Positions 3,470 to 39,960 of a stretch of 44,820 nucleotides of DNA are shown piece by piece (within the stretch, counting starts at the first letter, position 1; every line of letters starts with the position of its first letter). The position numbers were made by a program, and so were the translations under genes. Source of the DNA: Escherichia phage SM_S22; the sequence record PP627283.1; one strand, written 5' to 3'. Below the pieces are notes generated by a model. It saw only the letters and a list, made by a program, of their open reading frames with translations, did no database searches and was not told the DNA's origin.

Positions 3470-4556
3470 TCAATATTTGGCGGATCGAATGATTCGCCGT
3501 CACATCTTCACCCAGCGCCTGAGCAATGACCAGGCGCGAAGGGTGCTGGCTATGTGGGAGAAGTTCCGGCCCGCTTTGCTGGGCAAGTTGACCGAGTTAC
3601 TTGATGGCAAAAAGTCCATGAGCAACAAGGCACTTACCACACTATTAACGCAACTCGACAAGACCGTCAAAACGGAACTGCGCGCCGAGTTTAAAGTGCT
3701 GGCGGAGAGTCTTCAGGAGTTCGCCGACACGGAGGCTGATTATCTTTCCGACACATTAACGGCAGCGATCCAGCCAGCGGTCGCCGTACCAGCGGTTGAG
3801 GTGGTTGGTGTGGTGACTGGCGCGCAGATTGCAGCGACGGCGATGAAAAACCCGTTCCTGGGTAATACGATGATGCAGTGGCCTGATTCACTTTCCGAGT
3901 GGACCCGGACGCAGATCGGGAATCAGGTGCGCGCCGGATTCATCCAGGGCAAGCCGACGATGGAAATTATTGCGGACGTGAGGCGCGCGCTAGGCGGTCG
4001 TAGTGCGCAAGCGATCTCAAGCGTTGTTAAGTCCGCGGTCAACCACTATGCGGCGACCGCCCGCGAATTAATGGTAAAAGCTAATGACGATATTCTCGAA
4101 GGACGCCAATGGTTGGCTACATTGGACACGCATACTTCTCCCATGTGCCAGCTACGCGATCGCCTGTTTTATCCAGTTGATGTTACTCCCGACACAAAAG
4201 GGAAGCGCGGCGGGAAAATGGTGGCGGGATCACAATATGGCGCTGGTCCGGGCAAGTTGCATTATTGTTGCCGGTCGACGGAGACGTGGAAGGTTAAAGG
4301 CATGGAAGATTGGCCCAGTGGTAAGCGTCCGGCACTGAAGGCTGACGCGGGTCGATTGCTGAGTGAGCAGGTCGACGCGCAGACCGATTTTTTCTCATGG
4401 GTGCAGCGCCAGCCGCGCCATATCCTGGAAGAATTATACGGAGTGCAACGCGCCGACCAGATTATGCGCGGCGTGAAAGTGCCGAAAATGTTCACCGATT
4501 CAGGCGAACTGATGACTATTGCACAGCTTAAAAACCGGGGGTTATGGCGTGATTAA
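3453..4556 (+). CDS. head morphogenesis / minor head protein (Mu F / SPP1 gp7-like, putative)
   Basis: 367 aa immediately after portal, overlapping its stop; assignment by synteny. Confidence 0.5.
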   Translation: MAKTINQYLADRMIRRHIFTQRLSNDQARRVLAMWEKFRPALLGKLTELLDGKKSMSNKALTTLLTQLDKTVKTELRAEFKVLAESLQEFADTEADYLSDTLTAAIQPAVAVPAVEVVGVVTGAQIAATAMKNPFLGNTMMQWPDSLSEWTRTQIGNQVRAGFIQGKPTMEIIADVRRALGGRSAQAISSVVKSAVNHYAATARELMVKANDDILEGRQWLATLDTHTSPMCQLRDRLFYPVDVTPDTKGKRGGKMVAGSQYGAGPGKLHYCCRSTETWKVKGMEDWPSGKRPALKADAGRLLSEQVDAQTDFFSWVQRQPRHILEELYGVQRADQIMRGVKVPKMFTDSGELMTIAQLKNRGLWRD

Positions 4557-4878
4557 ATACGCAGCGATTGGACTGGTTAGCGGTCTGGCGGTAGGATTCT
4601 GGCTAGGTGACTCCTATCGCGCTGGCGTAGTGGCGGAGGCGGCGCAAGAAGCGCAAGCCCAAGCCCAACGGCAGCAAACTAAAGTTGTTGAGCGCTCCGT
4701 GCAGGCCGAACAGGCCCGCGACGTAGAATACCGGACTATCACAAAAGAGGTTGTTAAATATGTTACGCGCCCTAACCGCCCTGATTGTAGTTTTGACGCT
4801 GAGCGCGTGCGGATCAAGCAGCGTGCCGTTGATGCCGCTAACGGAGTCGGCACTGCGACCGCCGTGCAAGTTCGATAA
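4549..4878 (+). CDS. i-spanin (Rz-like), probable GTG start
   Basis: N-terminal TM segment IKYAAIGLVSGLAVGFWLG followed by A/Q/E-rich coiled-coil region; GGGGG RBS before GTG at 4549. Confidence 0.5.
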   Translation: MIKYAAIGLVSGLAVGFWLGDSYRAGVVAEAAQEAQAQAQRQQTKVVERSVQAEQARDVEYRTITKEVVKYVTRPNRPDCSFDAERVRIKQRAVDAANGVGTATAVQVR

Positions 4879-4990
4879 CCCGTCTGCGGACCCCGACGAA
4901 GATTTGATGATTGACGTGAAAAATATGGAATGCGGGGCGAAGCTGAGGGCGCAGGTGTTGGAGTTGCAGCAAATAATTAAGGGGCCGTAA
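4760..4990 (+). CDS. o-spanin lipoprotein (Rz1-like), embedded in +1 frame of i-spanin
   Basis: Signal peptide with lipobox LTLSAC, proline-rich mature part; RBS AAAGAGG; overlapped-gene architecture typical of Rz/Rz1. Confidence 0.55.
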   Translation: MLRALTALIVVLTLSACGSSSVPLMPLTESALRPPCKFDNPSADPDEDLMIDVKNMECGAKLRAQVLELQQIIKGP

Positions 4991-5003
4991 TGGCCCCTTT
5001 TCC
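4981..5003. terminator. hairpin GGGGCC-n-GGCCCC plus T-run between convergent genes
   Basis: Read from sequence; lies between o-spanin stop and the stop of reverse gene 5005-5769. Confidence 0.5.
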
Positions 5004-5004
5004 G

Positions 5005-5769
5005 TTAGCGAGGAATGCCGCAAATCTCGTTGAGTGTTTTCACATCCAGCGCCACCGCCGTGGATTTTGGCTTGTCCGGGTATGGGATGAATTGCTCAAC
5101 TTCAGGCCATGCCTTAATCAGCTTCTTGTCAGTATTGTGCAGGTCCAGCACACCGGTAACGGTGAGTTTGAACGCATCATACTTCGCGCGCAACTCGCGA
5201 CGGGCCTTGTCGTTACGGTCCAGGCGCTTACAGAAATCATGGTCCGCCGGGTAGTCTATACGACCGCGTGGCTTATATATCGGCAGCGATTTCCCGTCGT
5301 CGTCGACTTCGCACACTGACGCTAACAAAATTTCCTCATACCCAGGCACAATATCGCCGAGATCGGGAGACAGTTTATTCATGTATTTATACTCCCAGTA
5401 TCCGCGATGTACTCGGAATCGGTGTCCGTCTCCGCTCAATGACACGGTACGGACGTTTCCGCCTGCGTTGATCTCGAAAGTGGCGTCGTAAACGCTGCCT
5501 ATACCATATGGGTTGTCGGCGACATGTCTATACGTCGCCTTATTGGTGTACACACAGACGCCGTACATCTGCGACGGGTCATCGCCGATCGCTTCAATGC
5601 GCTCACGTAGCTCGGCGAACGTATGAATTCCTTCCGGCATACAGTCCAGCGTAATGGCGTACGCCAGATTTCGAGAGTCCATCATGATTGATTTGGCTTC
5701 GGTCGCGATTTCGTGGTCGCGCAGGATGTTAGCCAGAATCTGGTTTTTAATGTCTTTCGTCAGTCTCAT
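5005..5769 (-). CDS. hypothetical protein, reverse-oriented moron in head module
   Basis: About 254 aa from ATG at 5769 (RBS GAGGA); the longer ORF to 6216 is rejected because it overlaps the scaffold gene; own promoter TTGCAA-17-TATATT. Confidence 0.5.
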   Translation of the reverse strand: MRLTKDIKNQILANILRDHEIATEAKSIMMDSRNLAYAITLDCMPEGIHTFAELRERIEAIGDDPSQMYGVCVYTNKATYRHVADNPYGIGSVYDATFEINAGGNVRTVSLSGDGHRFRVHRGYWEYKYMNKLSPDLGDIVPGYEEILLASVCEVDDDGKSLPIYKPRGRIDYPADHDFCKRLDRNDKARRELRAKYDAFKLTVTGVLDLHNTDKKLIKAWPEVEQFIPYPDKPKSTAVALDVKTLNEICGIPR

Positions 5770-5798
5770 TAGTGTGTCCTCGTTGTTGGTGTGCAACC

Positions 5799-5862
5799 AA
5801 TATATGCAACCAATACGAGGATTGCAAGCGAATTTTGCGATTATTTTTATCGCTGATAATAT
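5799..5862. promoter_or_regulatory. divergent sigma70-like promoter pair
   Basis: Minus: TTGCAA(5822-5827)-17-TATATT(rc of 5799-5804). Plus: TTGCGA(5835-5840)-16-TGaTAATAT(5854-5862). Two TGCAACCAAT motif copies. Confidence 0.5.
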
Positions 5863-5917
5863 TAGAAGCGTGAAGTCGAGCGGGTGGCCTGCTCTGCCAC
5901 AATCCCAGGGGGATAGC

Positions 5918-6622
5918 ATGAAACTTACTAAAGCAGAATATGACGCGTTGCCGGAAGGTATGAAGGCGCTTTTTGTTGCCGATGGCGACGGGTATAAATC
6001 AACGTTCATGACCGCGGAAGAAGTACAAGCGGAAATCAAGGGTCTGAAAGACAACAACGCGAAGCTGGTGAGCGAGAAGAAAGCAGAAGCCGAACGCCGC
6101 GCCGAAGCGGAGCGCCTTGCGAAAGAGAAAGAGGAAGCCGCCGCGCGCAAAAATGGCGACCTCGAAGCGATCGACAAGTCCTGGAAAGATAAGTTTGCGA
6201 AATACGAAGCAGACACATCGGGAAAAATCGAAGCCTACCGCAAGCAGATCCACGATCTAACCATCGGCAGTGCTGCCAAAGACCTGGCGTCGAAACTGTT
6301 CGGTAAGAATGCGGGAATCATGCAACGTCACGTTATGGACCGCCTCACTCTGGAAGACGGCGAAGACGGCAGCTTGAAAGTGCGTGTCTTGCAGGATGGA
6401 AAACCGTCCGCGCTGACTATGGAAGAGCTTGAAAAAGAGTTCCGTAATAACGCCGATTTTGCATCCGTCCTGGCTGGCACGCCAGCAGGTGGCGCGCCTA
6501 GCAAACCGACGCAGGTTGTCGAAGATGTGAAGTCGAAAATCACTATGGGCCACAGCTTCGGTATCACTGACCTTACGAAACAGGCCGGTGAAATCATCGC
6601 TAAGATGGGCGACGACGAGTAA
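5918..6622 (+). CDS. scaffolding protein (putative)
   Basis: 234 aa from ATG 5918 with RBS AGGGGGA; helical, charged, EAERRAEAERLAKEKEEAAAR region; directly upstream of major capsid gene. Confidence 0.55.
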   Translation: MKLTKAEYDALPEGMKALFVADGDGYKSTFMTAEEVQAEIKGLKDNNAKLVSEKKAEAERRAEAERLAKEKEEAAARKNGDLEAIDKSWKDKFAKYEADTSGKIEAYRKQIHDLTIGSAAKDLASKLFGKNAGIMQRHVMDRLTLEDGEDGSLKVRVLQDGKPSALTMEELEKEFRNNADFASVLAGTPAGGAPSKPTQVVEDVKSKITMGHSFGITDLTKQAGEIIAKMGDDE

Positions 6623-21617: not shown

Positions 21618-21640
21618 AAGCCCCGAAAGGGGCTTATTTG
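21618..21640. terminator. hairpin between convergent genes
   Basis: AAGCCCC-GAAA-GGGGCTT. Confidence 0.45.
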
Positions 21641-21852
21641 CAGGTTGTGCTTTTGAAATGGTCTACAGACACGTACTGGAAGCTAAACGGATATCCCGCC
21701 CTTAGCATTTTATGCCCGGAGAAGTCTGCAACACCATACACAGGGACCGCATAATCCATACCGCCAGTGTGGTATGTCGCGTCGCAGATCTTGCCAGGAA
21801 TAGTGGAGCAACCAGACAAAAGAACCGCACAAATCATAATTAAGGTTTTCAT
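21634..21852 (-). CDS. small lipoprotein (superinfection-exclusion candidate)
   Basis: 72 aa from ATG 21852 (RBS AGGGGA); signal peptide MKTLIMICAVLLSGC with lipobox; promoter TTGCAA-16-TAATAC upstream; divergent from tail fibre gene. Confidence 0.55.
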   Translation of the reverse strand: MKTLIMICAVLLSGCSTIPGKICDATYHTGGMDYAVPVYGVADFSGHKMLRAGYPFSFQYVSVDHFKSTTCK

Positions 21853-21932
21853 GGTATCATCCCCTATATTTGGTTGAGTTTTAGTATTACACCGCTCAGC
21901 CAGGATTGCAACCAATTTAAGAGGATTCAGCT

Positions 21933-24718: not shown

Positions 24719-24779
24719 GATGTTTTCCTTTTTAGTGGGAGGCGTATTGCCCCGACGCGTTAACTATAGTGCAACCAAC

Positions 24780-25250
24780 CTATTGGTTGCAAGTGAATTT
24801 TGCAACGTTTATCGCGTAAATTTTCGGGACCAAATCACCACACGCCCGACGAATTGCCGCGATGTTCTTCTCGCAATCTTCAATGATGACCAGTTCCGAC
24901 ACGTCCGCATAGCAGACCATTTTGAACACGGCGCACGCCTTAAACTCAGGCGGCGGGGTGTCGTCCTGCATGTGGCGCATAAACAACCGGCCTACCGGGA
25001 AGACCTCCAATTGCCTGGCGGTGGTGTCCCAGCATTCTCGCTGCCGGTTGGTCAGATACGCGATCTCGAAGCCTTGCTCTTTATACATGCTCAACAGCGG
25101 CAGCATATCCATGTTAAGGTCTTCGCGTACGTGCGCTTTGTGCCACTTCGCCCAAAATGTTGATTTGGTTTTTATCCCCGGCACCAGGTCGGCACGCGCA
25201 TCACTTGACCCGTTAATAACGCCATCCAAATCGCAAATCAGTAATTTCAT
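24780..25250 (-). CDS. HAD-superfamily phosphatase (nucleotidase / PNK-phosphatase-like)
   Basis: 156 aa; HAD motif I LICDLDGVI at N-terminus. Confidence 0.5.
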   Translation of the reverse strand: MKLLICDLDGVINGSSDARADLVPGIKTKSTFWAKWHKAHVREDLNMDMLPLLSMYKEQGFEIAYLTNRQRECWDTTARQLEVFPVGRLFMRHMQDDTPPPEFKACAVFKMVCYADVSELVIIEDCEKNIAAIRRACGDLVPKIYAINVAKFTCNQ

Positions 25251-26388: not shown

Positions 26389-26443
26389 CGTGTTGTCTCC
26401 GGGGTATTAAAAAGGGCGTCCAAACCGGACACCCTCAATATAA

Positions 26444-26470
26444 TGCAACCAATATGATTGTGCAACCAAT
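26444..26470 (-). promoter_or_regulatory. internal sigma70-like promoter with TGCAACCAAT pair
   Basis: Minus-strand read TTGCAC-17-TATATT; two TGCAACCAAT copies (26444-26453, 26461-26470). Confidence 0.4.
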
Positions 26471-26794
26471 TTACGCATAAAAGTTAGGGTTGCGTGCAAC
26501 GTCTACCAGGTAAAGGTTGCTCATGCGGTTGCCGTAGTGCCCTGGAGTGCGCTGGCGGCACACAACGGCGAAGCCTGGTGGAATTGTATTGCCCGTCTCA
26601 ATAATCCACGCCACGCGTGCTCCTGACAGCGTTTTGCCGTTGTATTCGATGCGTGTTCCGCCATCGGCAGTGTTAAGGTTACCAATCTTGCAGCCTGTGG
26701 ACTTCAGGCGGATGACGCCGGTCTTACTGTCGTAGGAAAAAAGCTGATTGGTCATTGCCACTGAAAAGTCGATGGCGTCGAATGTAGTATTCAT
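26471..26794 (-). CDS. HNH_3/AP2-like domain protein (possibly degenerate HNH)
   Basis: 107 aa; YDSKTGVIR...GGTRIEYNGKTLSGARVAWIIETG...SNL pattern. Confidence 0.35.
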   Translation of the reverse strand: MNTTFDAIDFSVAMTNQLFSYDSKTGVIRLKSTGCKIGNLNTADGGTRIEYNGKTLSGARVAWIIETGNTIPPGFAVVCRQRTPGHYGNRMSNLYLVDVARNPNFYA

Positions 26795-39917: not shown

Positions 39918-39946
39918 GGCACCCTGCTATATTGGTTGCACACCAA
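39918..39946 (+). promoter_or_regulatory. sigma70-like promoter with conserved leader
   Basis: TTGCAT-17-TATATT then GGTTGCACACCAACA-GGAGGG-ATG; the same leader occurs (rc) before gene 5005-5769. Confidence 0.45.
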
Positions 39947-39960
39947 CAGGAGGGCGGAAC

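Follow-up and report, generated by a model that had tools for sequence, protein, structure and literature searches.

The window, by which we mean the whole 44,820-nucleotide stretch of Escherichia phage SM_S22 DNA analyzed here (PP627283.1), is a Dhillonvirus-type E. coli siphophage genome. Its first 25 kb match 164 phage records, and the 1.8 kb around the gene under study match 157, with Escherichia phage SM_A8 as the best match at 95.9% identity. Gene order is the same as in the annotated close relative GeorgBuechner: terminase, portal, minor capsid protein, Rz/Rz1 spanins, nmad5, scaffold, and major capsid. The nmad5 locus contains the following features:

4519 to 4990, plus strand: Rz and Rz1 spanin genes (4519-4878 and the embedded 4751-4990), Rz-like by PHROGs, the left neighbors of nmad5
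4979 to 4999, no strand assigned: GC-rich hairpin of 8 bp, common to the converging spanin and nmad5 units, with the Rz1 stop codon in its loop
5005 to 5769, minus strand: nmad5 coding sequence, 254 aa plus stop, Pfam PF18757 (Nmad5)
5122 to 5124, minus strand: codon K216, the Tmn-escape residue in SM_A8, within the signature T213-x-x-K216-L217-x3-W221-P222-E223
5777 to 5781, minus strand: ribosome-binding site GAGGA, 7 nt 5′ of the nmad5 ATG
5783 to 5789, minus strand: junction of an accessory-gene slot between the promoter and nmad5, empty in the window
5792 to 5800, minus strand: copy 2 of the 9-mer TTGGTTGCA, right after the -10 element and within the 20-mer TATATTGGTTGCACACCAAC
5799 to 5827, minus strand: predicted sigma-70-type promoter, with -35 TTGCAA at 5822-5827, a 17-nt spacer, and -10 TATATT at 5799-5804
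5805 to 5813, minus strand: copy 1 of TTGGTTGCA, in the promoter spacer and abutting the -10 element
5919 to 6622, plus strand: head scaffolding gene, the divergent right neighbor of nmad5

Translation of the window at 5005-5769 on the minus strand gave 254 aa and a stop codon. The first-pass annotation of this DNA had proposed a reverse-strand gene of ~254 aa within the late structural block and had made its coding status depend on conservation in relatives. All 13 orthologues taken from public phage genomes and IMG/VR contigs were intact, each at 254 aa, and their pairwise dN/dS had a median of 0.12 (range 0.05–0.20) at a median dS of 0.53. Taken together, the dN/dS and the intact orthologues indicate that 5005-5769 codes on the minus strand, in a frame under strong purifying selection, and the gene as proposed is real. 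Truncated or frameshifted copies were seen in a few metagenomic relatives, and these could be assembly errors or a sign of dispensability. The same annotation had named a head-morphogenesis gene as the direct left neighbor, a position that is occupied instead by the spanin genes.

We then considered where the protein begins. The nmad5 frame is open upstream to 6216, giving a 403-aa ORF, and an ATG lies 80 codons 5′ of the nmad5 start, which implies a 334-aa form. Since this distance equals the offset between the published K296 (SM_S22) and K216 numbering, the published SM_S22 annotation probably begins at the upstream ATG. The extension lies antisense to the scaffold gene and spans the promoter. 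The 403-aa and 334-aa forms were rejected as real proteins because a 1-bp indel closes the extension after 24 codons in four relatives and a different gene occupies the stretch in other relatives. Judged by these alignments, the 254-aa form is the real Nmad5 protein, and the upstream extension is predicted to be non-coding.

Full-length nmad5 was found by tblastn in at least 145 phage records, and its position and orientation are shared by a relative whose Nmad5 is only 44% identical. nmad5 has a GC content of 0.522 (window, 0.548) and a GC3 of 0.624; both values are inside the core-gene range. These observations bear on the earlier description of the gene as a moron. An independent promoter and a hairpin, as that description supposed, are present; sporadic acquisition is contradicted by the number of genomes, the distant relative, and the normal GC content. 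A comparison of presence and absence in related phages, which had been suggested as a check, placed nmad5 in nearly all relatives, and hence its distribution is not sporadic. Lambdoid morons, for example cor, likewise have their own promoter and terminator hairpin within a late operon; nmad5 does so on the opposite strand and shares its TTGGTTGCA promoter motif with the cor gene of the window phage. Unlike sporadic morons, nmad5 is fixed across the genus and in distant relatives, with a base composition in the normal range and strong purifying selection.

The nmad5 promoter and a recurrent 9-mer

The promoter TTGCAA-17-TATATT was located at 5827-5799 on the minus strand, exactly as the first-pass annotation described it. 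In a consensus scan, this pattern alone was not above chance (2 sites found against 1.4 expected). All 14 aligned relatives, including the phage with the 44%-identical Nmad5, retain the -10 element together with TTGC from the -35 element, and the promoter was also kept in relatives where another gene follows it.

The promoter holds two direct copies of TTGGTTGCA. This 9-mer occurs 12 times in the window, where 0.5 copies are expected, and none of 100 shuffles reached 12. Every one of the 12 copies lies between large ORFs, and 11 are found at similar positions in GeorgBuechner. A composite pattern, TTGCA-N8-9-TTGGTTGCA-N0-1-TATA, occurs three times in the window and in none of 100 shuffles; all three sites (5801-5827, 24765-24792, and 26439-26465) are on the minus strand. 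Features of this kind away from the nmad5 locus, together with the cor gene, are:

21634 to 21852, minus strand: cor-type superinfection-exclusion lipoprotein gene, 72 aa (PHROGs Cor), inside the late (tail) block
24765 to 24792, minus strand: second composite promoter, TTGCAA-N8-TTGGTTGCA-C-TATAGT, overlapping a palindrome, TGCAACCAA-TAGG-TTGGTTGCA, at 24770-24791
26439 to 26465, minus strand: third composite promoter, upstream of a leftward, Dam-containing gene block

A copy of TTGGTTGCA at 21907-21915 precedes the reverse-oriented cor gene, and the 20-mer TATATTGGTTGCACACCAAC recurs at 39928-39947 on the plus strand, ahead of a ribosome-binding site and an ATG. In the literature, TTGGTTGCA returned primer sequences only. 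Conservation across the relatives, the enrichment of TTGGTTGCA, and the composite pattern together make the nmad5 promoter credible. It is predicted to be a conserved, sigma-70 host-type promoter, one of three in the genome with an embedded TTGGTTGCA, and the 9-mer resembles the half-site of a putative operator set into promoters of this class.

At the other end of the gene, a convergent terminator had been called at 4981-5003. A hairpin is indeed kept in relatives, at 4979-4999, and includes one compensatory change from A-T to G-C. The plus strand, on which the hairpin ends the spanin genes, has the better T-run of the two; that of the nmad5 strand is poorer (AATTATTT). No RNA features came out of Rfam and tRNA scans over the full window.

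Roughly half of the aligned relatives carry a small gene between the conserved promoter and nmad5. Across relatives, at least five unrelated genes were seen in this slot: a 53-aa ORF; a 104-aa protein (phrog_24635), which is in SM_A8 too; a protein of 135–140 aa; a 170-aa protein (phrog_3007) with a weak DnaN-like segment (Pfam DNA_pol3_beta_2, E=7e-4, below threshold); and a 105-aa protein (phrog_2510). A hypervariable slot under a shared promoter resembles, by analogy, accessory or counter-defense hotspots.

The Nmad5 family and its genomic contexts

No family had been assignable in the first pass. We assigned the protein to a Pfam family on a score above the curated gathering threshold with the whole model covered, and it is a full-length PF18757 (Nmad5) member: E=4.5e-56, 190.6 bits against a cutoff of 27, with residues 1–253 aligned to model positions 1–206 of 206. 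In PHROGs, it belongs to phrog_1965, a family without an assigned function, and searches of NCBIfam and PADLOC gave no match for Nmad5. A HMMER search of 1.84 billion cluster representatives yielded 544 family clusters at E≤0.001, with proteins mostly of ~190–230 aa. Our literature search found no biochemical assay of any Nmad5.

To describe conservation, we used a family alignment of 55 representatives from clusters at 50% identity. Residues R2, G104, T213, L217, W221, P222, P229, L246, N247, and G251 are near-invariant (frequency 0.93–1.00 among the 55), and all are present in the window protein, which carries the N-terminal RLT, the central GG, the TxxKLxxxWPE motif, and the C-terminal LNxxxG-hydrophobic-P motif. 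Among the same representatives, K216 is conserved in 62% and E223 in 82%. The Tmn-escape lysine K216 falls inside the family signature TxxKLxxxWPE, an observation that is new here. Compared with PF18757, the Dhillonvirus proteins have insertions at ~72–90 and 120–160 that are specific to this lineage, with a column occupancy of 0.13–0.5. That the near-invariant residues are few, and mostly of a non-catalytic type, suggests a binder over a classical enzyme.

Structure prediction with a structural search had been proposed as a route to the function of this protein. The AF2 model of Nmad5 was confident (pLDDT 90.4), and the Foldseek search with it gave no PDB match; the BFVD matches were other Nmad5 proteins only.

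We next surveyed the neighbors of Nmad5 in 29 non-redundant loci (70% identity clusters) from IMG/VR, comparing 142 neighbor ORFs against Pfam. The survey used a crude ORF caller, the IMG/VR loci were retrieved by two sequence patterns only, and the pattern for one locus scan was built from a 13-sequence sub-alignment. Most of the neighbors have immunity, recombination, or replication functions. The commonest families were the repressor- or Cro-type HTH_3 (8), HTH_31 (7), HTH_19 (6), Peptidase_S24 (5), DUF2800 (5), PD-(D/E)XK (5), Enc34 SSB (3), AAA_24 (3), PolA (3), and N peptide (2), and the hypermodification-type HMUDK_hel was found twice. On single contigs, Nmad5 lies three genes upstream of a DUF2800/Enc34 SSB/PolA module, after Dam and adjoining lysis genes, or beside YAcAr and a dGTP diphosphohydrolase. 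The family is typically represented by an early-region gene of siphophages or prophages, and a hypermodification neighborhood is exceptional.

Lambdoid phages provide one such context. The mEp235 protein gp37 is a canonical Nmad5 (Pfam E=3.7e-72) and is separated from N by one Nun-like gene, while the HK244 homologue HK24401 directly follows the antiterminator gene N. C-terminal tblastn matches to Nmad5 were found in many Stx phages (Stx1/Stx2), and a genome-contig scan with the lambdoid homologue returned four enterobacterial loci only. The mEp235 gene gp37 is an accessory gene expressed from a host-type promoter, as is predicted for the window gene; the mEp235 and HK244 members differ in lying in the pL operon shortly after N, in being 207 aa long, and in having none of the Dhillonvirus insertions. 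In lambda, the post-N region holds ral.

Yuavirus provides the other. The Nmad5 proteins of SN1 and vB_Pa-PAC9, relatives of Pseudomonas phage M6, are ~38–41% identical to the window protein over the C-terminal 80 residues. Yuavirus Nmad5 sits in an operon for thymidine hypermodification and nucleotide metabolism (PMC9476957) and is co-directional with it, whereas nmad5 of the window stands alone, on the opposite strand, in a structural block. The association with base-modification genes that lies behind the name of PF18757 is absent from this genome type.

Tmn escape and the possible role of Nmad5

Both nmad5 and its connection with Tmn escape have been described before, so the locus does not represent a new type of system. 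Yamashita et al. (2025, Commun Biol 8:290; PMC11846954) treat nmad5 of Escherichia phages SM_A8 and SM_S22, both Dhillonvirus, in relation to Tmn, a membrane NTPase defense to which SM_A8, with wild-type nmad5, is sensitive. In that study, Tmn-escape mutants of the two phages carry nmad5 K216E (K296E in SM_S22 numbering); K216E alone confers escape, and its reversion brings sensitivity back (PMC11846954). The Nmad5 of the window is 97% identical to that of SM_A8 over 254 residues and keeps K216. The two phages share the gene, its position between the spanin and scaffold genes, and its orientation; SM_A8 has in addition, between promoter and nmad5, the 104-aa gene that is absent from the window. 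A link to host defense, which the first-pass annotation had put forward in general terms, is therefore borne out by the K216E escape of this SM_A8 orthologue. Two experiments that it had proposed also exist in print. For expression toxicity in the host, attempts to clone nmad5 failed, apparently owing to toxicity in E. coli; for the knock-out on defense-carrying hosts, the deletion phage is viable, keeps plaque formation, and does not escape Tmn (PMC11846954).

Several simple roles for nmad5 were considered and rejected. Wild-type nmad5 is not the published anti-Tmn gene, which is ORF35, a separate gene elsewhere in the SM_S22 genome, and phages with wild-type nmad5 are Tmn-sensitive (PMC11846954). 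Nor is it the direct and sole trigger of Tmn, as its deletion leaves Tmn sensitivity (PMC11846954). It is also distinct from Ksap1, the Dhillonvirus protein sensed by KpAvs2, which has 74 aa and is encoded elsewhere.

The reading that we favor, at a probability of roughly 0.55, is that nmad5 is a dispensable Dhillonvirus gene in its own transcription unit, encoding an accessory binder whose interaction with Tmn is altered by K216E. Nmad5 would be made from its host-type promoter independently of the late structural operon and, going by the promoter type, probably in early or mid infection. In this phage, it may be an accessory factor connected with the early, recombination, and replication functions. 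Its conserved surface, formed by R2-L3-T4, TxxKLxxxWPE, and the C-terminal LNxxxG-hydrophobic-P, probably serves to bind a partner, either a protein or a nucleic acid; Nmad5 is probably not a DNA-base hypermodifier here. K216E would alter this conserved surface, an interaction would be gained or changed, and activation of Tmn would be prevented. There is a precedent for such interplay in another Tmn variant, which is activated by direct binding of the early T2 protein RIIB, with point mutations that part binding from activation (PMC13001434, preprint). By analogy with this RIIB-activated Tmn allele, protein-level interplay between Nmad5 and Tmn is plausible. That the escape residue is conserved would be expected equally if K216E abolished or altered a core activity and if it changed a binding surface.

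A core activity of that kind is what an enzymatic reading would predict: Nmad5 as a true nucleotide- or DNA-modifying enzyme that leaves a low-level or site-specific mark, with Tmn sensing the consequence and K216E changing the product. We consider this rather unlikely, although several observations are in its favor. The name Nmad5 comes from a predicted association with base modification (Iyer et al. 2013, as cited in PMC11846954), and the Yuavirus gene is inside a thymidine-hypermodification operon. Some homologues adjoin genes for dATP/dGTP pyrophosphohydrolase, YAcAr, or Dam. The most conserved motif of the family includes K216, which is what one would expect of an active-site residue, and the orphan fold is compatible with catalysis, in which R2, T213, K216, E223, and N247 could form an active site. 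The paper reconstituting the M6 pathway shows no test of Nmad5 (PMC8989533); however, it gives the steps to 5-NedU to gp51–gp54, none of which is listed as Nmad5, and the close M6 relative SN1 has an annotated Nmad5 within its thymidine-hypermodification cassette.

The gene content of a close relative argues further against such an enzyme. GeorgBuechner, with 94% DNA identity over the nmad5 region, annotates Dam- and Dcm-like methyltransferases only, ~20 kb away; a pyrimidine hydroxymethylase, a 5-hmdU kinase, and an aGPT-Pplase are all absent from its annotation. Restriction-modification systems are comparatively effective against Dhillonviruses, in contrast to the deazaguanine-modified Queuovirinae (BASEL, PMC8594841). 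Canonical Nmad5 proteins are found in lambdoid pL operons, hypermodification-type neighbors at only 2 of the 29 non-redundant loci, and the model resembles no known enzyme fold. Finally, deletion of nmad5 leaves Tmn sensitivity unchanged (PMC11846954), which makes it hard to reconcile Tmn sensing with a modification made by Nmad5. The label “DNA modification enzyme,” on which the published reading that Tmn senses modified DNA is based, is unsupported by genome content, family-wide gene neighborhoods, and fold, and the position of K216 in the family signature points toward interaction mapping and away from DNA chemistry.

A second alternative is that wild-type Nmad5 is an anti-defense protein directed against a system other than the tested Tmn allele, and that K216E retargets it. 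The genetics look like a gain of function, in that escape follows from the point mutation and not from the deletion (PMC11846954). The hypervariable slot directly upstream, under the same promoter, is typical of counter-defense loci, and the TTGGTTGCA promoter motif is common to nmad5 and the cor exclusion gene. The lambdoid Nmad5 genes, moreover, occupy the post-N region, the site of ral in lambda. Anti-defense genes are usually patchy and fast-evolving, however, and nmad5 is near-universal in the genus with a dN/dS of 0.12. The family spans very different phage groups in conserved replication or immunity contexts, and K216 belongs to the conserved core and not to the variable positions of the surface. 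The lack of a PADLOC match counts weakly here, as that library holds defense rather than anti-defense proteins. Overall, we regard a wild-type anti-defense role as decidedly unlikely.

A role in head assembly or lysis, suggested by the position between spanin and scaffold genes only, is very improbable, given the opposite strand, the gene's own host-type promoter, the homologues that lie elsewhere in immunity, replication, or nucleotide-metabolism regions, and the viable deletion phage (PMC11846954). An ADP-ribosyltransferase-like toxin of the R-S-E type, for which the first pass had noted a faint R/S-x-S/E-E arrangement, made of strings that do occur in the sequence, and with which the apparent toxicity on cloning (PMC11846954) would agree, is scarcely credible and was rejected, since the E145/E146 pair falls in an insert confined to this lineage and missing from most of the family (occupancy 0.17), S110 and S112 are conserved in <60%, sequence searches of Pfam, NCBIfam, and the PDB gave no match to such an enzyme, and Foldseek gave no such fold.

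Returning to Nmad5 as an accessory binder, a more specific version can be put forward only tentatively, as possible but on balance improbable in all its parts together. Nmad5 would be misnamed, being a protein whose fold has no solved relative and whose gene sits in the early region of many temperate and virulent siphophages, either next to repressor, Cro, or N genes or heading a DUF2800 nuclease/Enc34 SSB/PolA module; it would bind a host or phage partner through the conserved N-terminal tip and the surface of TxxKLxxxWPE and the C-terminal LNxxxG-hydrophobic-P; K216E, on that surface, would act as a blocker of Tmn activation; and the set of TTGGTTGCA promoters would also control cor and the slot. 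The TTGGTTGCA promoter motif and the variable slot may help in the engineering of Dhillonviruses, which are treated as phage-therapy candidates (PMC11846954).

Reading frame and damaged copies of nmad5

The frame of nmad5, the reverse-strand gene at 5005-5769 (-), remains open for 149 codons 5' of the true start (5770-6216 (-)), antisense to the scaffold gene and across the sigma-70-type nmad5 promoter (TTGCAA-17-TATATT, 5827-5799 (-)). An ATG lies 80 codons upstream of the nmad5 start, which matches the offset between K296 and K216 in the numbering reported for SM_S22 (PMC11846954). As stop codons close this upstream extension in four relatives, we rejected the longer form as an annotation artefact. 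Truncated, split, or frameshifted copies of nmad5 were also observed in a minority of related contigs, none of them from the window (proteins P0036-P0038, P0041, P0042, P0196, and P0197). These damaged copies fit with the gene being dispensable, but they may be assembly errors.

Surroundings of nmad5

Between the conserved promoter and nmad5 is a hypervariable accessory-gene slot (5783-5789 (-)), which is empty in the window. In relatives it is occupied by a small gene, drawn from a set of at least five that are unrelated to each other (53, 104, 105, ~135-140, and 170 aa); one of these has a weak DnaN-like segment.

Accessory-gene slot in loci of relatives
L004, 5825-5986
L005, 5550-5957
L006, 5596-5961
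L007, 5353-5919
L014, 5681-5998
L032, 1611-1925

The intergenic region that holds the nmad5 promoter also contains a weak divergent promoter-like site, TTGCGA-16-TAATAT (5830-5870 (+)), directed at the scaffold and capsid genes; it has 8/12 matches, which is under the scan threshold, and was identified by eye. On the other side of nmad5, the Rz/Rz1 spanin genes (4519-4990 (+)) are placed within the head-gene block, ~37 kb away from the endolysin ORF (42521-3012), the position of which was assigned by synteny with the related phage GeorgBuechner. The hairpin common to the spanin and nmad5 side holds the Rz1 stop codon in its loop.

A repeated 9-mer between large ORFs

The 9-mer TTGGTTGCA of the nmad5 promoter occurs 12 times in the window, against 0.5 expected, and every copy falls between large ORFs.

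Copies of TTGGTTGCA in the window
5792, 5805, 21907
24770, 24783, 26444
26461, 36516, 39901
39932, 40660, 43472

Three copies are contained in the composite promoter architecture TTGCA-N8-9-TTGGTTGCA-N0-1-TATA, the perfect palindrome at 24770-24791 is made up of two copies, and copies are found at similar positions in GeorgBuechner. TTGGTTGCA looks like a putative motif, of operator or promoter type, shared by a set of phage genes; we found no mention of it in the literature searched.

Two further genes neighbor such sites. One TTGGTTGCA promoter lies directly downstream of ORF 26471-26794 (-), which is syntenic with a GeorgBuechner gene annotated as “putative homing endonuclease” and located there between a Dcm-like methyltransferase and a Dam-containing gene block. 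The other (21634-21852 (-)) is a second reverse-oriented gene within the late (tail) block, with a TTGGTTGCA site and promoter-like TTGCAA-16-TAATAC upstream. Its product is a lipoprotein of 72 aa with a match to the Cor superinfection-exclusion family in PHROGs (E=1.8e-26).
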